Position numbers and translations under genes: made by a program. The notes under the pieces were generated by a model. It was not told the DNA's origin and ran no database searches. It saw nothing but the letters and a program-made list of their open reading frames with translations. 64,000 bases of DNA from Alphaproteobacteria bacterium. Lineage in GTDB: Bacteria > Pseudomonadota > Alphaproteobacteria > MPNO01. Within the stretch, counting starts at the first letter, position 1; every line of letters begins with the position of its first letter. Shown here piece by piece: positions 957 through 55,712 of the stretch. The DNA lies in the NCBI GenBank assembly GCA_964291675.2, contig OZ219866.1:1184001-1248000 (forward strand). Reading direction: 5' to 3'.

Positions 957-2210
957 GTGGCGCGGGCCTCCTGGCTCGGCGGTATCGGGACCGCGCTCGG
1001 GCATCGCGACTACCGGGTCTACTCGATCGGCGCCTCTGGGCCGTTTCTCGGCACCTGGATCTACCGCACCGCGCTCGGCTGGCTCGCCTGGGAGCTGACG
1101 CGCTCGCCGGCCTGGCTCGGCATCGTGGTGTTCTGCGAGGTGGTGCCGATCATCGCGCTGGTGCCGCTGACCGGGGCGGCGACCGACCGGCTCGGCGCCT
1201 ACCGGATTTTCAGGACGGCGCAAGCCTCCGGCGCTTGCGTCATGGCGGCGCTCGCGCTCGCCACGGCGCTGGGCGCGATCTCCATCGAGCTGTTGCTGGC
1301 GCTGACCGTGCTGAACGGCGTCAACATGGCCTTCATGCAACCCTCCTATTTCGCCCTGGTCGCCAACCTGGTGCCGCGCGAGGCGCTGTCGTCGGCGGTC
1401 GCCCTGCAATCCTCGATGGTCCAGACCGCGCGCTTCGTCGGCCCGGCGATCGCCGGCGCGCTGCTGCTCTGGCAGGGCGCGGCGGCGGCGTTCGCGGTCA
1501 ACGCGGTCTCCTATGTCGGCATGGTGGCGGCGCTGCTCGCGATCTCGTATCGCGATCCGGCGCGGATGGCGGGTCCCGCCGGCGGGCTGCTCGGCGACGT
1601 GGCCCAGGGGCTCCGCTACATCGCCGGCCACGCGACCATCCGCACGCTTCTGTTGATGACGGTCGCGTTCTCGGTGCTGCTGCGCCCGGTGGTCGAGCTG
1701 CTGCCGGCCTTCGCAGCCGAGGTGTTCGGGCGCGGCGCGGACGGGCTGGCGACCCTGCTGTCCGCGGCGGGAGCGGGCGCCATCGTCGGCTCGCTGGTGC
1801 TCGCCCGGCGCGGCAGGACGCAGGGTCTGACGCGGCTCCTCGGGGCTTCCGGCGCGCTCTGCGGCATCGTCGTCGCCGGGTTCGCCGCGACCGATGCGTT
1901 CTGGCTCGGCATCGCCCTGATGGCCACCTACGGGCTGCTCTCCAACGCCAACTCGATCTGCAGCCAGATCCTGATCCAGAACTGCGTCGACCCGGCGATG
2001 CGGGCCCGCGTGATGAGCCTGGTCGGGCTCACCTTCCGCGCCGTGCCGGCGGCGAGCGCGGCGCTGTTCGGGGCGCTCGCGGCAGTGTTCTCCCTCGGCC
2101 CGCCGATCGCGGTGGCGGCCTTGCTCGGCACCCTCGTCGGGTTGTGGACGCTGAACCTGATCCGCAGCGCGCGCCTCGACGAGCGCGCCGAGGGGCCGCC
2201 CGCGGGTTAG
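957..2210 (+). CDS. MFS transporter
   Basis: About 12 hydrophobic segments, GAATDRLG motif A; GTG start at 957 approximate. Confidence 0.85.
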   Translation: MARASWLGGIGTALGHRDYRVYSIGASGPFLGTWIYRTALGWLAWELTRSPAWLGIVVFCEVVPIIALVPLTGAATDRLGAYRIFRTAQASGACVMAALALATALGAISIELLLALTVLNGVNMAFMQPSYFALVANLVPREALSSAVALQSSMVQTARFVGPAIAGALLLWQGAAAAFAVNAVSYVGMVAALLAISYRDPARMAGPAGGLLGDVAQGLRYIAGHATIRTLLLMTVAFSVLLRPVVELLPAFAAEVFGRGADGLATLLSAAGAGAIVGSLVLARRGRTQGLTRLLGASGALCGIVVAGFAATDAFWLGIALMATYGLLSNANSICSQILIQNCVDPAMRARVMSLVGLTFRAVPAASAALFGALAAVFSLGPPIAVAALLGTLVGLWTLNLIRSARLDERAEGPPAG

Positions 2211-2320
2211 GGCGGAGGCGGTCCCATTCGGCGCGGCGGCGCGGCGGTTGTCGGACTGGCAGCCATAGGTTACAGCGGTGCGCGATCGTGCCCATCGAGA
2301 GCGCCGCGCCGGAGGCAGGT

Positions 2321-2608
2321 ATGACCGAAACATTCACCAGGTGGGATGTCACCGAGCATCTTCGCACCCGGGAAGATGCGCGCCTTTACTTGCAGGCCTG
2401 CGCGGAGGAGGATCCGGGCGACGGCAGCCTGATCCGCGCGGCGCTCAACGACATCGCTCGCGCCGGCAACATGAGCAGGCTGGCCCGCGACGCCGGGATG
2501 AGCCGCGAAGGGCTCTACAAGGCCCTGTCGGAGGACGGCAATCCCAGCTTCGCCACGGTGATGCGGATCGCCAGGGCGCTCGGGATGCGGCTGCGGATTA
2601 CCGTCTAG
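2321..2608 (+). CDS. Putative addiction module antidote protein (HI1420-like XRE HTH), no adjacent toxin
   Basis: GGAGG RBS; ALNDIARAGNMSRLARDAGMSREGLYKALSEDGNPSFATV signature. Confidence 0.85.
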   Translation: MTETFTRWDVTEHLRTREDARLYLQACAEEDPGDGSLIRAALNDIARAGNMSRLARDAGMSREGLYKALSEDGNPSFATVMRIARALGMRLRITV

Positions 2609-3404
2609 CGGGCGGCGTCCGCCCGGGCTCCGAGATCAGCAGGTAGCCGCGGTTCTCGACGGTGTCGAAGGTGCGCATCGCGGCGACCAGGTCGGCCGAG
2701 GCCACCCACACCCAGGGCGCCCGGTTGGGGTTCACGTCCATGATCAGGAAGGAATCGCTCGCCGCGTCATAGGCGCCGAGCGGAGAGATGTGCCCGCCGC
2801 CGGGCTGGCCGAGCGCCTTGCGCGCATAGTTGACCAGCACGTAGTCGTCGCGCGCGGCGAGGTTGCGGGCAAGCTCGCGGGCGACCGCCCCGGCATCGGC
2901 GGCCTTGTCCACCACGCGGACGGTTACCGCGAGCCCGTGGGCGCGCAGCACCCGGGCGAGCTGGCGCAGCTGCAGGCCGAAATCGCGCACGGGCTTGCCG
3001 CCGATCTCGATCGGCTTGCCGAGCACCTCGATCTTCGACTTGGTGCGTTCGGTCAGCACGTTGTTCGGCGTGTACTTGCCGAAGAACGGGTTGAAGCCCT
3101 GGGGCAGAAAGGCGCGCTCGTCCTCGGCGATGGATTGCCGGTCCTCGGGCAGGCCCTGCTTCCGGCCCAGCCTGAGCGCGTTCAGCACGATGGCCGACGA
3201 GACCGGGCCGCAGAAGATCTTGTTGTCCTGGCTCACGAAGTGGTTGCTGAGCGGGAAGAAGTCGGTCTTGTGGGCGGAACGCGCGAGGCGCCGGAGGCTC
3301 TCCCCGGACTGCCATTCGACCAGCTCGGGCGCGGCACCCGAAGGGCTTCCCGCCGCCACGGCGGCGGGCAGCGCGAGGAGCAGCAGCAGCGCGGATCGTT
3401 TCAT
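2598..3404 (-). CDS. Phytochelatin synthase family protein with signal peptide
   Basis: QDNKIFCG (Cys), GGHISPLGAY (His), MDVN (Asp) triad; N-terminus MKRSALLLLLALPAAVAA; ATGA overlap with upstream gene. Confidence 0.85.
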   Translation of the reverse strand: MKRSALLLLLALPAAVAAGSPSGAAPELVEWQSGESLRRLARSAHKTDFFPLSNHFVSQDNKIFCGPVSSAIVLNALRLGRKQGLPEDRQSIAEDERAFLPQGFNPFFGKYTPNNVLTERTKSKIEVLGKPIEIGGKPVRDFGLQLRQLARVLRAHGLAVTVRVVDKAADAGAVARELARNLAARDDYVLVNYARKALGQPGGGHISPLGAYDAASDSFLIMDVNPNRAPWVWVASADLVAAMRTFDTVENRGYLLISEPGRTPPARR

Positions 3405-4441
3405 CGTTGCCTCCCGGCTCCCGCCTCGGCCTCGATGCGCTGCGCGAGCATGCGGCGGAAGGCGAGCCCGGGCCCGTCCACGCTGATGTCGATCGAGAAC
3501 GCCCCCGGGCGGCGGTCGATATTCGCCTGCTGGGCGGCGAGGATCGAGACGTCCTCGCCAAAGACGCGGCGGAAATCGACCCGGAAGCGCGCGTCCATCG
3601 CCGCGTCGTCGAGGGCGAAGCTCCGCGCATGCGCGTAGAAATAATGCGTGGTGGTCGCGGTCTCGGGCGTCATGGCGTTGAGGTTGAAGAACTCGACCCT
3701 CCGTTCCGTCGGGGCGTCGGCGCCGCCGGCGCCCGCCGGCGCGCAGCCGGCATGCACCGTGTTGTAGGCGGGGAGCGTGGACACCGCGACCTGCCAGCGG
3801 TCGACATTGCCGTCGAACCCGCCCATCTCGCCATAGAGCGGCGGCGCCGGCGAGTCGGCCACCAGCCGCGACATGGTGACGAAGTCCTCGCCGCGCCCGG
3901 TCTCGATCGGGAAGTCGGCGACGTTGTCGGTGCCGATCGAGCCCGCATGCACATAGGCGACATGCGAGAGATCGAGCAGGTTGTCGTTGAGCAGCAGGTA
4001 GTTCGCCTCGACATGGAAGGGCTCGCCGCCTTTGACCGGGCGCCAGTCGGGATGGTCCATCCACCACCAGTCGGGGATCAGCGCGGGGTCGGCGGCCTCG
4101 GCATCGCCCATCCAGATCCACACCCAGCCATGGCGCTCGGCGAGCGGGAAGGCACGGACGCCCGCGCCGGGCGGGACGGTCGACTGGCCGGGCACCGCAA
4201 CGCAGCGCCCGTTCGCATCGAAGCGGAGCCCGTGATAGCCGCACTGGAGGGTCTCGCCCACCAGGCGTCCCATCGAGAGCGGCAGCGCGCGGTGGCAGCA
4301 GCGGTCCTCGAGCGCGGCCGCCCGGCCGTCCGGGGTGCGGAACAGGACCACCGGCCGGCCCAGGATCGTGCGGGCGAGCGGGGTCCCGGCGACCTCGTCG
4401 TCCCAGGCGGCGGCGTACCAGCAATTCTTCAGATACGTCAT
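3401..4441 (-). CDS. Rieske non-heme iron oxygenase (VanA-like)
   Basis: CCHR...CGYHG Rieske motif; DNLLDLSHVAYVH Fe site. Confidence 0.9.
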   Translation of the reverse strand: MTYLKNCWYAAAWDDEVAGTPLARTILGRPVVLFRTPDGRAAALEDRCCHRALPLSMGRLVGETLQCGYHGLRFDANGRCVAVPGQSTVPPGAGVRAFPLAERHGWVWIWMGDAEAADPALIPDWWWMDHPDWRPVKGGEPFHVEANYLLLNDNLLDLSHVAYVHAGSIGTDNVADFPIETGRGEDFVTMSRLVADSPAPPLYGEMGGFDGNVDRWQVAVSTLPAYNTVHAGCAPAGAGGADAPTERRVEFFNLNAMTPETATTTHYFYAHARSFALDDAAMDARFRVDFRRVFGEDVSILAAQQANIDRRPGAFSIDISVDGPGLAFRRMLAQRIEAEAGAGRQR

Positions 4442-5391
4442 GCAGCCTCCGCCAGCCTGGGGAACAGGCGCCTCGCGTTGCCGTGTTCCATCATCGCGCG
4501 GCCCGCCGCGTCGAACCCCTCGTAGCCGTCGGTCCCGGCGGTCTCCGAATCCGCGACCTCGTCTGGAATATAGGGATAGTCGGTGCCGAACAGAATGCGG
4601 TCCGGCCCGGCGAGGGCTTGCAGCGCGGCGAGCGCCGCCGCATCGCCCGACAGCGCGGTGTCGTAGTAGAGCCGGCCGAGATAGGCGCGCGCGCCGTCGG
4701 GGTAGTTCTCGCGGAAGCGGGTGAGCGTGTCGAAGATCTCGATCCGGTGGGCGAGCGCCGGCAGCGCGCCGCCGGCATGCGACAGGATGAACCGGATCCC
4801 GGGCATCTCCGCCAGCACCCCGTTGAACAGCAGGCTCGCCGCCGCCCGCGCGGTTTCGCAGGGGTAGTCGACGATCGGCCTCGGCACGATATAGTCGCTC
4901 TCGGCGCTCTCGGCCGGGTAGGTCGGGTGGATGAGCACCACGGCGGCGCGCCGGTCGAGCTCGCGGTAGATCTCGCGGAAATCGGCATGGCCCGCCGGGC
5001 GGTCGTCGTTCCGCGTCAGGTGCATGAACCCGTCGAGGCCCACGGTCTCGGCGTATTCGATCTCGGCCAGGCAGTCGTCGACGTCGGGGAAGGGGAGCGC
5101 GGCGAAGGCGCCGAAACGGCCCGCGTGGCCGGCGATCAGCCCGGCGAGATAGTCGTTGCAGCGCCGCGCGAGGTCCCGGCAGGCCGCCCGGTCGCCGTAG
5201 TAGAGGCCGGGCGCCGAGAACGACAGGACCGCGGTGGCGATCCCCTGCCGGTCCATCAGCGCGAGCGAGGTCTCCGGCGACCAGTCGGGGAACGGCCGGT
5301 AGGCGGTCGAGGGATAGCCGCCCGCGGTCTGCGCCTCGCGGAAGAACCGCGGCAGCACGTGGTGGTGAACGTCGATGCGGTCCTGTCTCAT
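4438..5391 (-). CDS. Amidohydrolase_2 family protein (decarboxylase/hydrolase-like)
   Basis: IDVHHH, IHP, LSHAGG, LFGTDYP motifs. Confidence 0.88.
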   Translation of the reverse strand: MRQDRIDVHHHVLPRFFREAQTAGGYPSTAYRPFPDWSPETSLALMDRQGIATAVLSFSAPGLYYGDRAACRDLARRCNDYLAGLIAGHAGRFGAFAALPFPDVDDCLAEIEYAETVGLDGFMHLTRNDDRPAGHADFREIYRELDRRAAVVLIHPTYPAESAESDYIVPRPIVDYPCETARAAASLLFNGVLAEMPGIRFILSHAGGALPALAHRIEIFDTLTRFRENYPDGARAYLGRLYYDTALSGDAAALAALQALAGPDRILFGTDYPYIPDEVADSETAGTDGYEGFDAAGRAMMEHGNARRLFPRLAEAA

Positions 5392-6488
5392 GCGCGGTCC
5401 CAGGTGGGTTGGGCGGGAGAGGGCACTATAGCGCGGCTGGGCGGCACGGGTCGGGCGAGGCGCCGGGGCGGCGGGTTGAACGCCGGATTCTCCGGTGCTG
5501 CGGCCGGGCCCCAGGCGGAGATGTCCGGATCGGCGACCGGCGCGCCGCGCCCGCGCAGGCGGTCTCGTACATAGCCGGCAAGCCCGCCGGGGACGGCCAT
5601 CGCCCACAGCAGCCGGGCGCGCGCATGGCGGAGGTCGCGAAGCTGGCGCCGGGGCGAGCGTCCGATGTGCAGGCCCAGTCTCGTGATCTTGCGCGCGGCG
5701 TTCAGGAATGCCATCGGCTTGTTCCGGCAATAGTCGAAATCGTCGTTGAGCCTGGCGAGCGCCTGCAGATAGTTCCCGCGCGGCCACTTGACGGCGTCCG
5801 GCCATGCGTCGGACAGGCGCGCCTCACCGTCGTTCCTGAAATAGCGCCGGATCGGACGATCGACGATTATCGACTGGTACCGCCGGGACGTCCGGTTGTG
5901 CGTGACGCTTTCCGGGCAGTGTTCCGAATTCGTCAACTCGACGAATCTCTGTTTCCTGCAAACTGGCGTTTTCATCACGCCGATCATCTCGCCGGAGAAA
6001 TTCGGCCCGTAATACGCTTCCCGGAAGGATTGTCGCAGCGCTTCCCCCGGCATCGCGCTTTCATGCGCCAGGCGTCCAAGCAGTGTTCCGGTCTCGTCCA
6101 CACAGCGGAACACCAGCTGGTACGCGTCCGGATTGGCGTCGATCCGGGTGTGCTCGCGCCAATACGCTACGGTCTCCAGGGCATCGTCGAGCAGCGCATC
6201 GTCGCTGTCCAGGATCAACGTGTAGTCCCCCGAAAGGAATTCGGTTCCGGAATTCACGGCCGCGTTTCTTCCCCGGTTCCCGTCGTAGCGGTACCAGGAG
6301 ATCGGGAAGCCGGCCTCGGCCTGCCAGCGGGCGAGAAGGGAGGGCGTGTCGTCGGTCGAGCCGTCATCCACCACGACCCATTCGAAATCGCCTGTCTTCT
6401 GCCGCCTCAGGCTGTCATAGGCGCGGTGCAGCACGTGCGCGCGGTTATAGGTCGGCGTCAGGATCGAGAACGCTGGCCGCGCGGGCAT
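5388..6488 (-). CDS. Glycosyltransferase family 2
   Basis: TPTYNR, VVDDGSTD, LDSDD motifs. Confidence 0.88.
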   Translation of the reverse strand: MPARPAFSILTPTYNRAHVLHRAYDSLRRQKTGDFEWVVVDDGSTDDTPSLLARWQAEAGFPISWYRYDGNRGRNAAVNSGTEFLSGDYTLILDSDDALLDDALETVAYWREHTRIDANPDAYQLVFRCVDETGTLLGRLAHESAMPGEALRQSFREAYYGPNFSGEMIGVMKTPVCRKQRFVELTNSEHCPESVTHNRTSRRYQSIIVDRPIRRYFRNDGEARLSDAWPDAVKWPRGNYLQALARLNDDFDYCRNKPMAFLNAARKITRLGLHIGRSPRRQLRDLRHARARLLWAMAVPGGLAGYVRDRLRGRGAPVADPDISAWGPAAAPENPAFNPPPRRLARPVPPSRAIVPSPAQPTWDRA

Positions 6489-6717
6489 CAACGGGCCCTC
6501 CTGCCGTCGCGGGGGAGGTGCGCGGCAACGACTTTGCGAAGTTCGTTCGCCATCCTTTCCGGCGCGGAGCCGGCGGTTCGGGCACACCAGACGGTGTCGG
6601 TCGCGGATCGGGTCGGTGCCCGCGGCATGACCCTCGCGAGCGTGCGAGGTCCGCCCGCCGGGCCAGCCCGGTCCGGGCGCAGGACGATATCCGGAACGCG
6701 AAACGGCTGTGCGGGCA

Positions 6718-7578
6718 TCAACGCTCGTCTTCGTCGCGAAAAAACCCTCCCAGCGCGAATTCGGCTTCGGGCGGGTTCAGGGGTTCTCCCGCGGAACCGG
6801 GAACAAAGGTCAGTTCTCCGACCCTTATTTCGCGCTCGGTGGCGTACAGGTCCACCCGGACGAACGGGAACGGGGCCGAAAGACGCCGCGCCACGCGGAG
6901 CATATCATCGAGCAGCGCGGGTCTCGGATCGTCGGCGTCCCTGCCCGGATAGAGCAGCGTGGCGGGGATGCGGGCCCACGATATGTCGTACAGGTTTCGC
7001 GTGTGTCCCGCGAAACGGTCCGAATCCACCTGGATAAGTTTTGGGACGCCTCGGACGCAAAAGATCTTGTAGTCGTCGGGGACCGTCCTTCCATCCTCCG
7101 AGAAGAACGCCTCGACGATGATCTTGGGAACCAGGTGGCGATAGTTGTGTTCCTGGGAGAGACGGTAGTAGCGGATCCCGAACCATTGCCGCAGTTCGCC
7201 GCGATCGGGGAAATCGGACGGATCCATGCAGATCGCCGCCTGACCGCTGGAATGGGTGGGCTTGATGACGCATGGAAACCGGTCGGGAACGTAGGTCTCC
7301 AAGTCTTCCGGGTGCCGCAGGATGCGATAGGTCTCGATCGCGTATCCGCTTCCCAGGACCGATGAAATGTACTGCTTCGCATACTCCTTGTCGGTGACGA
7401 ACTGGATCAGCGGGTCGTAACCCAGCCCGCTCGTCTTCAGTGCGAAGAGATGGTCGTTGAAGCGGACGGGGCGGCGCCGCGGGAACCGGCCGAGCCGCTT
7501 GCGAAATCGGTACAGCGCGAACAGCCGGTCCCCCCAGAGGGTCGTCGGCAAAATTTGTCGCAACAATGTCTCGCTCAT
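6718..7578 (-). CDS. TupA-like ATP-grasp amidoligase
   Basis: TDKEYAK, IKPTHSSG, DYKIFC, VRVDLY, GELTFVP motifs. Confidence 0.82.
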   Translation of the reverse strand: MSETLLRQILPTTLWGDRLFALYRFRKRLGRFPRRRPVRFNDHLFALKTSGLGYDPLIQFVTDKEYAKQYISSVLGSGYAIETYRILRHPEDLETYVPDRFPCVIKPTHSSGQAAICMDPSDFPDRGELRQWFGIRYYRLSQEHNYRHLVPKIIVEAFFSEDGRTVPDDYKIFCVRGVPKLIQVDSDRFAGHTRNLYDISWARIPATLLYPGRDADDPRPALLDDMLRVARRLSAPFPFVRVDLYATEREIRVGELTFVPGSAGEPLNPPEAEFALGGFFRDEDER

Positions 7579-47929: not shown

Positions 47930-49413
47930 TGCGAAGCCCGTCAGTACACTGATTATCCGATTGGAAAGCCTAAACCGGACCCATCCGCGTCGCAAGCCAT
48001 GTGTGACTGAGACGGAAGAATGGAAAACATGAGGGGGCCATTCAACTGCCGTCTAGGCCTGAACAAATCCATTGACGGTCCCAGGACTTTCAAGGTACAG
48101 ACATCCTCACCGATCCATTTTCACCTAGTGAGGGGGAGCCTATAAAGCAACGCAAGATTGACCGAATTTACTTTTGTCTTCAAGCTAGAATTAGTGAAAG
48201 TCGTCTATCTCGTCTGGTGCAACAGTAAATGCACTAGCTTTTGTTGGTTTGTCAAATTGAAGGGGCCTTCGCTGCCTGCGTATACTTCAAGACTAAGGGT
48301 ACCGTCGTGATTGTGTGTGGCTGGACGTGAACATATCCTTCAGAACGCAACTTCTTGGTAGTGTTGCTGACCTATGTTCCGAATGCAACTTTGCTCTGGC
48401 AAGACCGGACATCTTAGTAGAGTTGCTCGTTAGACTTGCGCGTTACCGAGAAGAAGGCACGAAACTTGCGCCGCAGGTTTATTTGACTGACGATATAGAC
48501 TTTGTAATGAAACTGCTTCCCGGCGGTGAAAAAGTCCCTCTTTCGACTGCGGCATCAGACCCCAACGGAGTTGAAAAATTGCTTAAGTTGTGCGCTCCCT
48601 TAGCTGTCGGTGAATGGAGGATATTCGGCCAACAGATTGCCGACGAACTTACTTTCGGTGTTTTCCGTGGATCAAGCAATCCCATATCAGTTAGTGTGGA
48701 TGATACTTTGTTGTCAGAACAGACTGAAGCAACGGTTATCAAATTACATCAAGTTGCAGAAGAATGTGTGCAACTACGAAGTTCTAAAGGTCACTGTGAT
48801 CACGTGTTCTTTAATCATCGCAAAGTGGAAGATCCAACCCCTCTTCAGTATATTGATGAACTCATTAATAGCATTGTAAAGAAAGTAGAAGACGATGTCA
48901 GAGATGCCGCACACGGCTTTATTGCAAAGACTATACAATCTGCGTTGGTTCACTCTCATGGATGTCTTTTGGCTGTTACTAGTATGCCGAGACCCCCGCA
49001 AGTGCTAAGTCTTGACGCCGTGATATTGGATCGGCCGATCGATTTCCCTTCGTTGATCAGGCAATTGAAGAAAGATGATGATACTAGCACTTGGTTACAG
49101 CATATCGAAAGAGAGGCTCAGTTAGTTGAAGGAATGATCAATTGCGATGGAATTACATTGTTTGATCAGTATGGGAAGTTGCTTGCTTATCGTTGCTTCA
49201 TCCAATTGCCAAGACGAGTGGACGTAGGGGGAGGAGCCCGACGGCGGGCCTTTGAAACTCTAAAGGGGCGACTAGGCAAAGGTCTCTCAGCCGTAAGCGT
49301 TCGGGGTAGCCGCCCTTGTCAGGGGTAGGTTCGGGACCGCAGTCTCTGTTCCGGGATTTGGCGGCCGATAGTGTCCATTATCGGCTAATGGACACTATCG
49401 TTGGGGGGCTGCG

Positions 49414-49761
49414 GTGGCGCGTCGTGTACGCCGGTTCTGGTCGGACGATGAGAAGCGCCGGATTGTTGCGCAGAGCTACGCGCCCGGGGTTTCGGTGTCG
49501 GTTGTGGCGCGTCGCTACGACGTGAACTCCAACCTGATCTTCACTTGGCGGCGCGATCCCCGCTACAGGCCGGCGGCGGATGGCGAGGGTGCGCCGTCCT
49601 TCCTGGCGGTGGAGGTGGTGCCCGATGCGCCGCCGTCAGAGCCGTCTGCGGCATCGGAGGGTCGGATCGAGATTGCGTTGTCGAGCGGCCACCGGGTGAG
49701 CGCGATCGGGGCGTTCGACGTGGACGCGCTGTGTCGCGTGGTGCGGGCGCTGGGCGGATGA
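49414..49761 (+). CDS. tnpA: IS66 accessory protein TnpA
   Basis: [30 protein letters not shown]. Confidence 0.9.
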
Positions 49762-50105
49762 TCCCGGTCCCGTCCTCGACCCGGGTATGGCTGGCCTGCG
49801 GGGTGACCGACATGCGCAAGGGGTTCCCGGGGCTTGCGGCGCAGGCGGAGCGGGTGTTGAAGGCGGATCCGCATTGCGGCCATCTCTTCATCTACCGGGG
49901 CCGTCGGGGCGACCTGATCAAGATGATCTGGTGGGACGGCCAGGGAGCGTGCCTGTTCTCGAAGCGTCTTGAGCGCGGCCGTTTCGTGTGGCCGTCGGCG
50001 TCGGAGGGCAAGGTTTCGGTGACGCCGGCGCAGCTGTCGATGCTGTTGGAGGGGATCGACTGGCGGGCGCCGGTTCGCACCTGGCGGCCTTTGGCGGCGG
50101 GATGA
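49758..50105 (+). CDS. tnpB: IS66 accessory protein TnpB
   Basis: [25 protein letters not shown]. Confidence 0.93.
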
Positions 50106-51526
50106 TTCATCGTTTATATACAATAGGTTGACTCCTATCCGGGCTTCCCTTTGGCGGCCTTTTCCTGTAGGCTGCGGTCATGCTCGAAGAGGCGCATTCC
50201 CTGCCTGACGACATCGCCGCACTGAAGGCGATGGTGCTGTCCTCGCGGGCCGAGGTGGCGGCGCGGGACGCCGAGTTGCGCAACCGTGACCTTCTGATCG
50301 AGAAGCTCAAGCACCAGCTTGCGGGTCTGCGCCGCCAGCGCTTCGGCGCCACTTCGGAGGCCCTCGATCAGCTTGAGCTCGGGCTGGAGGACGAGGAGAT
50401 CGCGCGCTCGGCCGAGACGTTTGCCGAGCCAGCCCCGGCGGCAAAGAGACAGCCCAAGCGCCGTCCCTTGCCGGACCACCTGCCGCGCGAGGAGACGCAT
50501 CTCGCGCCTTCAGGCGATCGCTGCGCGGACTGCGGCGGTCGCCTCAAGCGTCTCGGCGAGGATGTGACCGAGGAGCTGGAGTACATCCCCGGCCGCTTCG
50601 TGGTGAAGCGCATCGTGCGCCCGCGCCTGGCCTGCGGCGGCTGTGAGACGTTCCACCAAGCGCCGCTGCCGTCGCGGCCGATCGAGCGCGGCCGTCCGGG
50701 CCCGGGCCTTCTGGCGCATGTGCTGGTCTCGAAGTACTGCGATCACCTGCCGCTCTACCGTCAGTCGCGTATCTTCGCCCGCGATGGCGTCGATCTCGAC
50801 CGCTCGACGCTGGCCGGCTGGGTGGGCAAGGCGACGGCGCTGCTGGAGCCCCTGGCCGATGCCGTCGGGCGCCATGTTCTGGGCGGCCAAGCCCTGTTCG
50901 CCGACGACACCCCGGTCAAGTTGCTGGCGCCGGGGACCGGCAAGACGGCGACGGGTCGGGCCTGGACCTATGTCCGCGACGAGCGTCCGTGGAAGGGCGA
51001 GGCATCGCCGGCGGCGTGGTATCGCTTCTCGGCCGACCGCAAGGCGGCGCATCCGAAGAGCCATCTCGCGGGCTACGCCGGCTGGATGCACTCGGACGGC
51101 TATGCCGGCTTCGGCGCACTGGCGCGCGCGGGGCCGGTCCGCGAGGTCGCCTGCCTGGCCCATGTGCGGCGCAAGTTCTTCGACGTCCACGCCGCTCAGG
51201 GCTCGGCGGTCGCCGCCGAGGCGCTGGAACGGATCGCCGCGCTCTACGCCATCGAGAAGGAGGTCCGCGGGCAGCCCCCAGAGCGCCGCGTCGCGATCCG
51301 CCGCGCCAAGGCCGCGCCGCACCTCGATGAGTTCGAGCGCTGGCTGCAAACGCAACTGCCGAAGCTCTCCGCCAAGACCCCGCTGGCGGCGGCGATCCGC
51401 CATGCGCTGACCCGGCTGAAGCGCCTGCGGCCCTATATCGAGCACGGCTTCCTCGAGATCGACAACAACCCGGCCGAGCGCGCGATGCGCCCGATCGCGA
51501 CGATGGAGTCATTCTGCACCCCTTCT

Positions 51527-53593
51527 TCAAGTGTCTGAAAACATTGACATCTGATCCCGACATGAAGCGCGACGCGGGTCTTTCCGCAGTGCCAGGGCGT
51601 TGGCGACCCGCTCGGAATGGAGGTCTTTGGCCCTGATTTGCCAGGGCGCTCCGGGAACGAGTTGCGTGGCAGGTAGCGTTCCATCCTCGATCAGGCGCCT
51701 GAGGGTATGGCTGGTCGTGCCCAACTCTTTCGCCGCCTCGGTCATGGTGCGCCAGTCGCCCTGCTTGTCCGCTGAGAGGTAGCCGTCGATCCCGTTCACA
51801 CGCCGGATCGATCCGACCCGGTGAGCGGTCCAACTCTTGTGCTGCCCGGTCCGCATACCCATCCGGTTGAGCGACGCGGCGATATGTTCGTCCGACCATC
51901 GCCCGGCCATGCTGCGTATCACTGCCAGAGCTTCCTCGGGCGTTCGGCAGCCATGTTCGCCGCTCTTGGGCTTGCGGACCCTGAGACGGGAATGACGGCC
52001 ACCCATCCAGTGGATCGTCAGCAGGACGTCACGCGCCTCTTCGTCGACATCGACGATTATGCCCATGATCAGGGTGCGCACGAGACGCTGGCGGGCGCGC
52101 ATGCTCACCCCGGGCGCGTTCCAGGCGGCCTTCAGGTCGTCGGCAAGTCCGGCCAGGTCGGGGACAGTGGGCCGCGGCGACGGCATCGCGCCCAGCCTTG
52201 CTTCGCACGCCTGGACGCGTCGAAGCGCTGCCTCCCAACTCTTCTCCAGCTCGGCGGCGATCAGCCGGTTGTCCGGATCGCAGGCGGCGTAGCGCCGCTC
52301 GGCGAGCGCCGCCTCGTAGCGGGCTTGCTGCAGATCCAGCTCGGCCACCCGTTGCTGTTCGGAAAGACCCTCCGCGTTCATCCGCTCGGCTTCCAACGAG
52401 GCTTCCACCGCCATGGGCTCCACGACGCGGAGGATCTCATCGGCAACGGCCGCATCCACACGCGCACCCCCGAACCCCAGACAGGGCTCTAGCTCGAGCT
52501 GGAGGTGTCGCCGATTGCAGCGGTAGACAGGATTGCCGGGCGTGCGACCGGAATAGGCAACGCTCATCGTGCGTCCGCAGCGTGCGCAACTGAGGAGGCC
52601 GCCAAGAAGCGCCCGCCCGCCGCGCCCCGACTTCGTGCCCCCCGCCTTGCCGAAGGCATTGGCGGCGAGCTGCGCCTGGTTGCGCTCGAACTCCGGCCAG
52701 TCGATGTAGCCCTCGTGATGGTCCTTCAGCACGACCTCCCATTCCGCCATCGGCTTGCGGTGTCCATAGCTCTTGCGCACGCGCCCGTCGACGATCTCGG
52801 TCCGCCGCTCGCTTTTGCCGTAAGCGTAGACCCCGGCGTAGAAAGGGTTCTTCAACACCGAAATTACGTTGCGATAGCGGATCGGCGTCCAGTCGAAGGA
52901 GACCATTGTCCTGCCATCCGACGGGCGTGGGAAGCAAAGCTTCTGCCCGCTCAGCGCCAGCAACACCTGCCGCGCGCTGCCAAGCTCGCGAAACCGGGCG
53001 AATACCTGACGGATCGCTTCCTGAACCCGAATGTCGGGGTCCAGCCCCAGCCCGGCCTCGGGATGCCAGACGTAGCCGATCGGGACGCTGATGCGAAGCT
53101 CGCCGCGGGCGGCCTTGGAGCGGGCGGCCTCGAACATCCGAGCGCGCAGAACGCCGAGTTCGAACTCGCTGATCTGGCCCTTCATGCCGAGCAGCAGACG
53201 ATCGTTGGGGTGGCGAGGATCGTAGATGCCATCCTGGTCGATGACGCGTGCCTCGACGAGACCGCAGAGCTCGAGAAGATGGTGCCAGTCCCGGCCGTTG
53301 CGAGAGACCCGCGAAGCCTCGAAACAAAGCACGGCTCCAACGTCCCCGGCGCACAGCCAGGCGACGAGGCGCTCGAAACCGGGCCGCGCAACGGCACCGT
53401 CCGCCGACAGGCCCTGATCGTCGTCGATGACTTCGACCCGGGCAAAGCCGTGCCCGCGCGCCACATCGACGAGATCGTATTGGCGGCGCTGGCTCTCCAG
53501 ATTGTTCCGCATCTGCTGGGGCGTGGACTGACGGACATAGACCACGGCCTTGCGCGTCAACACCGATCGCGGCAACGCTTCAGCGACGCCCAT
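51527..53593 (-). CDS. Large serine recombinase (resolvase, recombinase, Zn-ribbon, C-terminal HTH)
   Basis: YVRQST catalytic Ser, SRVSRN, LKNPFYAG, CARCG..YRC; GGAGG RBS. Confidence 0.93.
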   Translation of the reverse strand: MGVAEALPRSVLTRKAVVYVRQSTPQQMRNNLESQRRQYDLVDVARGHGFARVEVIDDDQGLSADGAVARPGFERLVAWLCAGDVGAVLCFEASRVSRNGRDWHHLLELCGLVEARVIDQDGIYDPRHPNDRLLLGMKGQISEFELGVLRARMFEAARSKAARGELRISVPIGYVWHPEAGLGLDPDIRVQEAIRQVFARFRELGSARQVLLALSGQKLCFPRPSDGRTMVSFDWTPIRYRNVISVLKNPFYAGVYAYGKSERRTEIVDGRVRKSYGHRKPMAEWEVVLKDHHEGYIDWPEFERNQAQLAANAFGKAGGTKSGRGGRALLGGLLSCARCGRTMSVAYSGRTPGNPVYRCNRRHLQLELEPCLGFGGARVDAAVADEILRVVEPMAVEASLEAERMNAEGLSEQQRVAELDLQQARYEAALAERRYAACDPDNRLIAAELEKSWEAALRRVQACEARLGAMPSPRPTVPDLAGLADDLKAAWNAPGVSMRARQRLVRTLIMGIIVDVDEEARDVLLTIHWMGGRHSRLRVRKPKSGEHGCRTPEEALAVIRSMAGRWSDEHIAASLNRMGMRTGQHKSWTAHRVGSIRRVNGIDGYLSADKQGDWRTMTEAAKELGTTSHTLRRLIEDGTLPATQLVPGAPWQIRAKDLHSERVANALALRKDPRRASCRDQMSMFSDT

Positions 53594-53765
53594 CGTCATC
53601 CTCCTTCACCGGGGCGGTCGCCGCTTCCAGAAGCAACCCGGCCACTGCGCTCACCACCGCGTCTCGTTCCTCCGAGCTCAGACCGCGCAGCGTCGGTGCG
53701 TCGAGCGGCATGCCGAGCTGTCGGGGTTCTCTCGGCGGTCGCGCTGTTACAGGCAAAGACTTCAT
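53580..53765 (-). CDS. Small hypothetical protein upstream of the recombinase (61 aa)
   Basis: GAGGAG RBS; MKSLPV...VAGLLLEAA; overlaps recombinase start. Confidence 0.5.
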   Translation of the reverse strand: MKSLPVTARPPREPRQLGMPLDAPTLRGLSSEERDAVVSAVAGLLLEAATAPVKEDDDGRR

Positions 53766-54082
53766 CGCGCTCCTCTCCGCTAACGGTTCCGTCATCGGGG
53801 GAGCTATGTCGAAAACCTTGGCCGACGAGAAGCTCGTGAAGTGCGGCGAGGGCGGCCGGGGAGGCACGCGGCGCGCCGATCTCCATGCCGGCGCATGACG
53901 CAGGATCAAGCATCCAGGCGGGTATCTTGATGATCAGCCCCGGCTCTACCTCGACGGAGGCCATGAGGCCGTCTGCACGCTGTTCGATAACTTCAGGGCG
54001 TACTCGCCGACCGAACAGTGCGTGCCAGCGGTAGTGGATGACGCAATCCTGCCCGATATGGGCAGAATGAATGCGCGATCGC
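53596..54082 (-). CDS. Body of a junction-split gene (start codon supplied from 51512 after circularisation)
   Basis: Frame open from the right junction: RSRIHSAHIGQDCVIHYRWHALFGRRV...IPAWMLDP. Confidence 0.55.
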
Positions 54083-54389
54083 CTTGGGCCGGAAGAACTA
54101 TCTCTTCATGGGCTCAGCCAGCGGCGGCCGGGCCGCCGCCATCGCCTACACCTTGATCGAGACCGCAAGGCTCAACCACGTCGACCCGCAGGCTTGGCTT
54201 GCCCAGGTTCTCGAGCGCATCCCCGACTACAAGATCAACCGCGTCGAAGAACTGCTGCCCTGGAACTGAACGCCGACCGCAGATCAGGGCCAAATCGCCT
54301 GAACGCCCAGGGCGGCTCCGCCCAACGCTTACTCTCAGCCGCCTATATTCGATCCGAAGATGGGTGGACAGACTTCGGGAGCACTGCCC

Positions 54390-55712
54390 GTGGCTAATAC
54401 AATGAAACTATGGCAGCCGGACAAGCAACAATTAGTGCCCAAGGATGCACGAACGGCAAAGTCCATTGCTAAGTGCGCTAGGCAACTTTCCCAGCGAGAC
54501 AAGGGACAGATCGTATCAGCATTCAAGTCCGGCCACTACGATATGGGGATCAATTTCCTCTGGCTTAGAACTATCGCAGCGCTGAAACGGGAATTGGCGA
54601 CCGTAGGGATAGGACTGTTAGGAGAAATGCTTGGGCGAGTTGGGGTAAATGAAGACGACGATATCGAGGATCTTCTAACGCCACGTGAAACGATTCGCTT
54701 GGCTGGGGAATTAGGCGCCATCTCTCAGACCGAAGCTATGCGATTGCGACAGACGCATGAATTGGTTGTCCATTTTAACCAACTCTCTTTTGAGGAGGAT
54801 CCACTCGAAGAAATCAACGAATCGGAAGCAATCACATCCCTTAGGGCATGTGTTTCAGCGGTGCTCGCGAAGCCAAAAATAGAGGTCGCTAAGACTTTTG
54901 TTGAATTCAGGGAATCTCTAGAGACCGAGGCATTTGGGTCGGATGAAGAAAAGATCAATTTGCTAGTGGGTTCTCCATACTTCTTTTGGAAGTTAACCAT
55001 CGACATCCTGATGAACTCCGCAAAGGATTCGTCCGGCGTTAAGTTGGAACATTGCTTGGCTAATTTAAACGTTATATTGCCTAAGTTGTGGCCAAATTTG
55101 AAAGATGCCGAGAAGTGGCGCGTCGGACGCACGTATGCTGAAGTGCATTCAGAAGGAAAGTCAACTTCATCGAGCGGCCTAAAGCAGGCTCTCATGAAGG
55201 TGCAGGGATTTGACTTTGTGCCTGAGAACCTTCGCAGTGATACCTTTGTCAAAGCCGCTGAGGCAGTGGTGCGTGCCCATGACGGAATGAATAATTTCTA
55301 TAATGAAGGCGCACCAGTTAGAAATCTTGCCCAACTCGGAACTTCAATTCCGCCGCCCGCTTTGCCAGCATGTATGACGGCGTTGTTGGCAGTATACGTC
55401 GGAAATCAATATGGTTATTCTTTCGAAGCAGCTCCCGTGGCAGAGAGGATGCTGTCTGGGATTAGTGATGATAGGTGGCGCTATTATTTGAACCAAGTGT
55501 TGCCCAACGATACTAGGATACTCAATAAACTAGCATTGCATTCCAAGCCGCGCGGGCGATGGATGGATTTAGTTGATCGGAATGCCCTTGGCGAATGCCG
55601 AGTTAATGACCGTCGGGTGGGTAAGATGCTCGATGCTGCAGGGCAAAAGAACGAGAACGAGATTGGTCAGACCGCGAAAAAACTCTTGGGACGATATTAC
55701 AAAAAAGCGTGA
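54390..55712 (+). CDS. Hypothetical ~440-aa protein, possible degenerate HEPN-like N-terminal domain
   Basis: Long low-GC ORF; GTG with GGAG RBS overlaps the DAC-like gene stop; helical N-terminus GHYDMGINFLW..LRQTHELVVH. Confidence 0.75.
   Translation: MANTMKLWQPDKQQLVPKDARTAKSIAKCARQLSQRDKGQIVSAFKSGHYDMGINFLWLRTIAALKRELATVGIGLLGEMLGRVGVNEDDDIEDLLTPRETIRLAGELGAISQTEAMRLRQTHELVVHFNQLSFEEDPLEEINESEAITSLRACVSAVLAKPKIEVAKTFVEFRESLETEAFGSDEEKINLLVGSPYFFWKLTIDILMNSAKDSSGVKLEHCLANLNVILPKLWPNLKDAEKWRVGRTYAEVHSEGKSTSSSGLKQALMKVQGFDFVPENLRSDTFVKAAEAVVRAHDGMNNFYNEGAPVRNLAQLGTSIPPPALPACMTALLAVYVGNQYGYSFEAAPVAERMLSGISDDRWRYYLNQVLPNDTRILNKLALHSKPRGRWMDLVDRNALGECRVNDRRVGKMLDAAGQKNENEIGQTAKKLLGRYYKKA

Follow-up and report, generated by a model that had tools for sequence, protein, structure and literature searches.

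The window analysed here, a stretch of 64,000 nt from contig OZ219866.1 of an alphaproteobacterial genome, contains an IS66-family insertion sequence whose transposase gene tnpC is split by a second element. This inserted element codes for a large serine recombinase and, on the same strand, for a small protein designated OrfU below. A first-pass annotation of the same DNA had described the insert as a cargo-free element of a serine integrase, with a symmetric site at its joined ends and with a tnpC frame that is restored upon its removal. Our results agree on the enzyme, the site and the frame; the qualification as cargo-free did not hold, as a second conserved open reading frame (ORF), that of OrfU, is present inside the insert.

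Anatomy of the insertion in tnpC

Assignment of the host to family IS66 relied on its tnpA/tnpB/tnpC organization, terminal inverted repeats and 8-bp target duplication (Table 1), together with the domains HTH_Tnp_1, TnpB_IS66, DDE_Tnp_IS66, zf-IS66 and DDE_Tnp_IS66_C. In a domain search, the 5' part of tnpC displayed DDE_Tnp_IS66 (E 2.8e-89) plus zf-IS66 and LZ_Tnp_IS66, and its 3' part DDE_Tnp_IS66_C (E 5.2e-19). When the two parts were joined by script, an uninterrupted ORF of 501 amino acids (aa) was obtained, running through RPIA/LGRKN (the slash marks the insertion point). Through the insertion, TnpC loses its 61 C-terminal residues, so that one mobile element, residing inside another, disables the latter.

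Table 1. Features of the IS66-family host and of the inserted element, in positions of the window
Feature	Position	Strand	Remarks
Host IS66-family element	49293..54332	+	tnpA, tnpB, split tnpC; terminal GTAAGCG.../...CGCTTAC repeats
8-bp target duplication of host, TCTCAGCC	49285-49292 and 54333-54340
tnpA	49414..49761	+
tnpB	about 49758..50105	+
tnpC, 5' part	50180..51498	+	TnpC residues 1-440, end ..RPIA; present ORF continues to a stop at 51538
tnpC, 3' part	54083..54269	+	LGRKN.. to stop
Inserted element	51499..54082	-	2584 bp including one GC core copy; genes on minus strand
GC crossover dinucleotide, left junction	51497..51498		recombinase-stop side
GC crossover dinucleotide, right junction	54081..54082		small-ORF side
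Inverted-repeat arm TCATTCTGC	51509..51517	+	10 nt from core; family-conserved
Inverted-repeat arm TCATTCTGC	54062..54070	-	10 nt from core; family-conserved
Palindrome CTGCCC-N5-GGGCAG	54050..54066		beside arm; candidate binding site or operator
Large serine recombinase, 690 aa	51527..53599	-	Ser25 in YVRQS; C-terminal excisionase/MerR-type helix-turn-helix (HTH), residues 618-661
OrfU body	53596..54081	-	161 codons open from element end; first in-frame ATG/GTG/TTG at 53964; stop overlaps recombinase start (ATGA)
Far-end Shine-Dalgarno-like run and ATG	51510..51526	-	purine-rich run 51519-51526, ATG 51512..51510; directly after recombinase stop; in frame with OrfU only across joined ends

The ends of the insert were delimited by comparison with a second copy in the same genome (copy C, see below). 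Identity between the two copies starts at the left GC and ends, on the right, at GC plus one C that is common to the two targets. Among the dinucleotides compatible with these limits, GC alone restores the tnpC frame in both hosts. The 2-bp core is thereby fixed as GC, in line with the action of a serine recombinase. Independent support for this crossover came from public contigs that skip exactly 2584 bases, with a 7-nt ambiguity. Each arm TCATTCTGC stands exactly 10 nt from its GC, which makes the joined-end site symmetric; this sequence occurred twice in the 64 kb against 0.40 expected, and 7 of 100 shuffles also reached two occurrences. The heptamer CGATCGC is present at both junctions (51492-51498 and 54076-54082) and was found 54 times in the window against 61.6 expected; being as common as chance, it carries no weight by itself and was dropped as standalone evidence. 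The palindrome CTGCCC-N5-GGGCAG, which lies within the OrfU frame, is kept at all three codon positions (entropy 0.30/0.15/0.17 at positions 1/2/3), indicating a constraint that acts on the DNA; either the extra HTH of the recombinase or OrfU may bind there.

The recombinase displayed the domain order of large serine recombinases: a Resolvase catalytic domain (PF00239, E 2e-20, residues 18-167), a Recombinase domain (PF07508, E 1e-17, residues 193-313) and a zinc ribbon (Zn_ribbon_recom, PF13408, E 2.5e-7, residues 331-388). Its C-terminus matched HTH_17 (E 5.5e-6) and, slightly above the cut-off of 28.8 bits, the excisionase-type HTH model TIGR01764 (30.1 bits). Ser25 of YVRQS and more than 200 further columns were invariant in 27 family members. 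The serine catalytic domain, the succession of Recombinase domain and zinc ribbon, and the same 2-bp core at both junctions in the absence of a target duplication together place the enzyme among large serine recombinases, and it would accordingly catalyse exchange between the element site and the target site. The nearest solved structure was that of the SPbeta integrase (E 1.7e-7 over residues 67-352). Three other assignments were rejected on the basis of model scores: a developmental excision recombinase of the XisF type (NF041201, the best NCBIfam match, yet 74.8 bits for a cut-off of 375), a Ccr recombinase of SCCmec (CcrA, CcrB and CcrC models, 28.6-40.3 bits for cut-offs of 700-900) and a small serine transposase of family IS607 (NF033518, 19.2 bits for a cut-off of 110).

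Target choice, copies and empty sites

Relatives were sought by scanning one genome per species, which yielded 351 of them; the best 80 were fetched, with recombinases 64-89% identical to that of the window. Many lay on contigs of about 2.6 kb, i.e. the size of the element itself. The conserved end motif of the small-ORF side was recognized in 72 of the 80 loci, and element length ranged from 2576 to 2618 bp where both ends seemed correctly placed. Junctions were considered readable with at least 60 nt of flank. On the small-ORF side, 52 of 60 readable junctions displayed the arrangement of the window (abutting the C-terminal part of TnpC), two were inverted and six showed no IS66; on the recombinase-stop side (abutting TnpC ending at residue 440), the corresponding figures were 41, three and nine out of 53. 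Both junctions were standard in 36 of the 47 loci that could be judged on both sides, and IS66 was present at one or both junctions in 61 of 72 loci. Together with copies A (the window) and C of this genome, these 36 loci represent 38 insertions in 37 distinct flank contexts, in which TnpC is 29-91% identical to that of the window. The common target is the block N.AER..R.[IFV]A/[LI]GRK[NS][WY]LF of TnpC.

The core dinucleotide was the same at both ends in 48 of the 56 loci read on both sides, and several of the eight mismatched pairs correspond to mis-located ends. Read in recombinase orientation, the matching cores were GC (39 loci), AC (4), GT (2), TT (1), CA (1) and AG (1). They follow the target codon: in tnpC sense, GC is found with Ala, GT with Val (L035, L053, L083), AA with Lys (L026), TG with Cys (L059) and AC with Thr (L061). 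In two loci (L044 and L072) the junctions differed, in tnpC sense, with AC towards the 5' end of tnpC and GC towards its 3' end, which may result from an event between mismatched cores or from later mutation.

The first-pass annotation had further proposed that a conserved coding motif of tnpC serves as target, that insertion may occur in either orientation, and that homologues should be located and empty IS66 copies sought. The motif was borne out, the same block being used in many divergent IS66 elements, and in most readable loci homologues were inserted there and not at random sites. Unoccupied copies were recovered as well (see below). The orientation claim fared less well. One locus (L037) was fully inverted and four others (L020, L029, L065, L092) displayed one inverted junction, but all 36 loci with two standard junctions shared a single orientation. 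The proposal is thus supported in part: it is retained for recombinase, core, tnpC target and empty copies, and amended for the cargo-free character and for orientation, the inverse of which is rare. The reversible silencing of the transposase that it also put forward would follow from the mechanism. In L029 and L065, the same C-terminal part of tnpC flanks the element on both sides in opposite orientations, the flanks of L065 being mutually reverse-complementary; this suggests a mixed orientation population or inversion in place.

Occurrence was broad. A tblastn search recorded recombinase relatives in 533 plasmid records, with Rhizobium (143), Sinorhizobium (111) and Bradyrhizobium (83) leading, and an OrfU profile matched 6 genomes in an even sample of 401 from the class. 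The element is hence widespread but sporadic.

Recent mobility is evident in this genome, where three copies were found. Copy C (G000:C2:3465944-3468526) differs from copy A by one 1-nt deletion in 2584 nt; its host TnpC is only 41% identical to that of the window and is interrupted at the same codon. The deletion, of the T at window position 53818, shifts the OrfU frame just past the conserved domain, and the recombinase remains 100% identical. Copy B (contig C1) repeats the IS66 of the window together with its insert at a different place, bordered by another duplication (GTTTCGAA). Two other IS66-family tnpC genes of the genome have no interruption. At the target position, one of them carries a Lys codon (AA), which does not match the GC core, and the other a GC core with LNRK. 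An assembly artefact was ruled out by the three placements in the genome and by the presence of the element in independent sequencing runs.

Decayed material accompanies the complete copies. An OrfU homologue (73% aa identity) adjoins a tnpC 3' end at C2:2698-3381, with no recombinase beside it, and a 220-bp right-end fragment, 86% identical, lies at C2:3252630-3252849. The IS66 on contig C1 harbours an additional 4.4-kb insertion at the start of tnpB (L012 about 1900-6310; G000:C1:896400-900808; equivalent to 49764-49768 of the window). This insertion has TGAGC.../...GCTCA ends and a 5-bp duplication, CCGGT, and encodes an HTH protein, a 484-aa rve-type transposase, an AAA_22 ATPase and an AAA_25 protein. 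Immediately downstream of the IS66 of copy C, a group II intron reverse transcriptase/maturase (RVT_1, GIIM) was found (L010:6532-8202; G000:C2 about 3469030-3470700), and a further tnpC 3' fragment at C2:3472439-3472633. In the window, the surroundings of IS66 (48315-49292 and 54341-55712) are of lower GC content and carry, on either side, ORFs of 337 aa and 450 aa without Pfam family.

Empty sites were obtained by placing contigs of public sequencing runs on positions 50500-54400. Three runs from three studies (X1, X2 and X3, one of them possibly the window's own source) each provided a contig joining 51491 to 54076, that is, the precise empty site. In X2, the empty form had a depth of 239 versus about 56 for the element. 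In a fourth run, X4, the right element end was joined to another IS66 variant. Unoccupied IS66 copies therefore exist, the contigs being no proof of excision. No circle-type joint was present in the Logan contigs of the four runs; such contigs drop rare forms and are hence uninformative on circles.

OrfU and its divided reading frame

The OrfU frame is open right up to the element's end, and in the window a substantial part of it precedes the first in-frame ATG, GTG or TTG. Codons 7-36, which in the window come before every in-frame start, displayed entropies of 0.91/0.79/1.53 at positions 1/2/3 among 59 distinct family sequences; the same pattern was observed for codons 37-60 (0.92/0.80/1.45). 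Judged by this third-position relaxation, the stretch before the first in-frame start is coding, and it contains an invariant HYRWH. AlphaFold predicted a small domain of beta-barrel plus helices, with pLDDT of 90 or more over residues 11-60 and a disordered tail from residue 98. Homologues of OrfU are all annotated as hypothetical, with called N-termini that vary widely; the PGAP calls are limited to tails of 59 aa in pRL12 and of 58 aa in a Methylocystis plasmid. In 33 of 60 judgeable integrated copies, no in-frame ATG, GTG or TTG precedes the HSAH motif.

A candidate start lies at the opposite end, immediately past the recombinase stop, where a purine-rich, Shine-Dalgarno-like run (AGAAGGGG in the window, AGGAGGTG in many relatives) is followed by an ATG which, in an integrated copy, reads into tnpC antisense. 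This ATG was positioned 14 nt past the recombinase stop in 42 of 59 loci, a count made without requiring an ATG; about 12 others, which belong to a Burkholderia-type subgroup, have the ATG and the recombinase stop overlapping in ATGA. When ends were joined in memory, the far-end ATG was in frame with OrfU in 61 of 61 cases, giving proteins of 149-178 aa, although end-finding for these joins required the ATG, so that this count is biased and 42 of 59 is the unbiased one. Full-length OrfU would thus be translatable only from joined ends, as present in a circle or in a tandem copy.

One such joint was encountered in nature. A metagenome scan with the pattern ATGA-N22-TCATTCTGCCCAT returned 71 matches, 70 of them unrelated and due to chance. 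Metagenome contig L158 displayed the recombinase 3' end, the Shine-Dalgarno run and ATG, N10-AC-N10, TCATTCTGCCC and OrfU as a single ORF, the joined frame reading M, eight residues and then HSAH. Joined ends thus do exist naturally, whether in a circle or in a tandem copy. A stricter joined-end pattern was found in no metagenome contig, and the joined-end pattern in none of 100 genome, plasmid and own-genome loci. In L158, OrfU is interrupted downstream by an IS3-type transposase gene (rve-like, 350 aa; L158:211-1263).

A second element of this genome shows the same layout. It measures 3.37 kb (G000:C1:1134466-1137833; L100 about 3466-6833), is duplicated at C2 about 3649400-3652770, and is inserted with a CG core in a Cys-rich repeat gene, paralogous sites of which are empty at C2:1613866/7 and C2:3227630/1. 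It codes for a recombinase of 718 aa (37% identical, with a C-terminal MerR-type HTH), a 316-aa ORF without family and, as first gene, a true member of DUF5372 (67.5 bits). At its far end, GAGGTG is followed after five bases by ATGA-N10-CG, the ATGA-N10-core-N10 geometry being that of the window element, and the joined frame adds to the DUF5372 protein 16 residues that include an HSTAH motif.

OrfU itself is probably a divergent protein of the DUF5372 type. Both genes occupy the same position beside a recombinase with a C-terminal HTH and, like OrfU, DUF5372 proteins (PF17342) are small and encoded just inside the end of recombinase elements. All 30 clusters nearest to OrfU in the Atlas carry DUF5372 (best score 0.94), and motifs H..HPL.GR ... 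DP..M.G ... L..LL are colinear in the two. The profile-profile comparison by hhalign was weak (probability 13%, E 0.0022, 75 colinear columns). OrfU matched no Pfam or NCBIfam family, the Pfam DUF5372 model included at E up to 1, and a Foldseek comparison of its predicted fold with the PDB returned nothing at E of 0.001 or below, the top rows being small barrels of the Tudor, chromo and KOW-like kinds (E 0.4-1). None of the papers in the literature collection searched mentions DUF5372.

Mechanism, alternatives and significance

The explanation we favour is that of a minimal, autonomous and site-specific element, about 2.58 kb long, which is mobilized by the large serine recombinase that it encodes. 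The enzyme would excise the element as a circle and insert it at the tnpC motif. The element site would consist of arm-N10-core-N10-arm with inverted arms of the TCATTCTGC type, strand exchange would take place at the 2-bp core, which corresponds to positions 1 and 2 of an Ala (or Val, Lys, Cys or Thr) codon, and this core would decide compatibility. Conservative excision would rebuild tnpC exactly, a reversible switch-off predicted from the mechanism. In the circle, the ribosome-binding site and ATG would meet the OrfU body and OrfU would be made; integration would separate them again. Through the overlap of the OrfU stop with the recombinase start, translation of OrfU could also raise that of the recombinase. 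Taken as a whole, this explanation is likely to be correct. Its two components differ in strength: we are highly confident of a site-specific recombinase element that targets IS66, and consider the production of OrfU from the circle only as reasonably probable.

Several points weigh against it. As regards mobility, the circle, its excision and the recombination are deduced from the chemistry of serine recombinases and were not directly observed; an empty IS66 copy may never have been occupied, and L158 is a single contig that could represent a tandem copy or a rearrangement instead of a circle. IS66 was absent from the six and nine readable junctions mentioned above; in several cases the end is mis-located or the IS66 copy truncated, but L016, L041 and L054 seem to represent sites outside IS66. 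A palindromic GC core should permit both orientations, yet the split was 36 to 1 and is unexplained; one possible explanation is that inverted copies would be read through from the tnpC promoter and be unstable.

Other points concern OrfU. Besides the bias of the in-memory count, an in-frame start was gained from tnpC antisense in 27 of the 60 integrated copies, as ATG in 13 and as GTG or TTG in 14. The far-end ATG lies within the conserved AATGA of the arm, whose conservation could be explained by recombinase-DNA binding, and the in-frame spacing is fixed by site geometry and inherited, so that the joined frames do not represent many independent events. The second ATG of the recombinase, two codons after the first, has its own Shine-Dalgarno sequence, and coupling to OrfU is therefore not required for its translation. 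Finally, a scan of 51300-54400 for promoters of the sigma-70 type found none, nor any terminator, and no convincing junction promoter was seen by eye.

In the best of the alternatives, OrfU is a recombination directionality factor made from the integrated copy (from a fortuitous or non-canonical start, or by read-through) that enables the recombinase to excise the element, the far-end Shine-Dalgarno run and ATG being a by-product of the arm. Directionality factors, which bind the recombinase and switch it to excision, share no sequence signature. A small protein beside a large serine recombinase is in the usual place of such a factor, and the SPbeta integrase was solved with its partner. The 27 copies with some upstream start and the location of the far-end ATG in the arm fit this possibility as well. 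It leaves the 33 copies devoid of an in-frame start to be accounted for, and the starts of the others are taken from unrelated tnpC antisense. Moreover, the other arm lacks an equivalent of the purine-rich run, the split layout is found again in a family only 37% identical, and gene callers give OrfU many N-termini. We regard this alternative as unlikely.

Less probable still is a regulatory intervening element, adopted by IS66 in the manner of the fdxN or skin elements and gating transposition to the benefit of IS66 or of the host, without any parasite being involved. It would agree with an exact reconstitution of tnpC and with XisF as best NCBIfam match, far below cut-off as that match is. 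Most IS66 copies, however, lack the insert (compare the depths in X2), as do most genomes to judge from the OrfU profile; the element moves between unrelated IS66 elements, and some copies have decayed, as shown by the frameshift of copy C and by the remnants. That the insert is a mere passenger, spread with IS66 by descent or homologous recombination and without site-specific integration of its own, is very improbable: the window and C1 copies, identical composites between different 8-bp duplications, could have transposed as a unit, but elements 1 nt apart reside in IS66 hosts with 41%-identical TnpC, identity stopping exactly at the GC cores, and precise empty sites exist, along with 37 distinct IS66 contexts for recombinases 64-89% identical.

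The autonomous element thus favoured resembles several known systems. Clostridial Tn4451 (TnpX) and Tn5397 (TndX) also depend on a single large serine recombinase, pass through a circular intermediate and have a 2-bp crossover dinucleotide at either end; they are larger, bear cargo and accept many GA-containing sites. The window element is set apart from them, by description, through its 2.6 kb without resistance or other cargo, its single protein-coding motif as target and its extra C-terminal excisionase-type HTH. Large serine integrases of phages, such as SPbeta SprA/SprB (PDB 9dxh, 9dxd), have the same domain order and combine an arm-core-arm site with a short target; similarity to the SPbeta integrase is remote, phage genes are absent here and the attachment site divides the small partner gene. 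The fdxN (XisF) and skin (SpoIVCA) elements are likewise serine recombinase elements inside a coding sequence, rebuilt by precise excision; they are single-copy and fixed in one host gene, whereas the window element is multi-copy and mobile among diverse IS66 elements in many phyla.

Landing in a transposase gene also has precedents. Some group II introns do so, RmInt1 in ISRm2011-2 being an example. RIT elements (tyrosine recombinase trios) use the transposase gene of another mobile element as landing site (PMC2864759). The chemistry of these two groups differs from that described here, consisting of retrohoming and tyrosine recombination, respectively. As for the divided gene, circle-forming insertion sequences (IS911, IS30, family IS110) build a junction promoter from -35 and -10 hexamers by joining their ends, and destroy it by integration. 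The window element instead joins a ribosome-binding site and start codon to an ORF body across the recombination site, and a start confined to the circle would be, by analogy, the translation-level counterpart of junction promoters. No prior description was found in a literature search of titles and abstract starts; subscription journals and supplementary files could hold one.

A broader proposal is that the pairing of a large serine recombinase with a DUF5372-type gene defines a widespread class of elements that reside in other mobile elements. In this class, the attachment site would divide the first gene, with ribosome-binding site and ATG at one end and ORF body at the other, so that the protein, and possibly a burst of recombinase through the overlapping stop and start, would be produced in the excised circle alone. 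Such a translation-level circle switch would be conserved between families only 37% identical, and the IS66 branch would use a protein-coding motif as landing site and match its 2-bp core to the codon of each IS66 lineage. We consider the chances of this proposal to be about even.

The results explain an annotation pattern encountered in Rhizobium, Sinorhizobium, Bradyrhizobium, Burkholderia and others, namely an "IS66 family transposase" pseudogene beside a "recombinase family protein" and a tiny "hypothetical protein". They also provide dozens of natural sets of recombinase, element site and target site with variants of the 2-bp core, useful for orthogonal genome engineering and for testing how such enzymes read their target. 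A mobile element that specifically disables another one adds a further level at which IS66 activity is controlled. Should the circle-only start codon prove true, it would represent a novel means by which an element senses its topology, and would give the uncharacterised DUF5372 family its first functional context.

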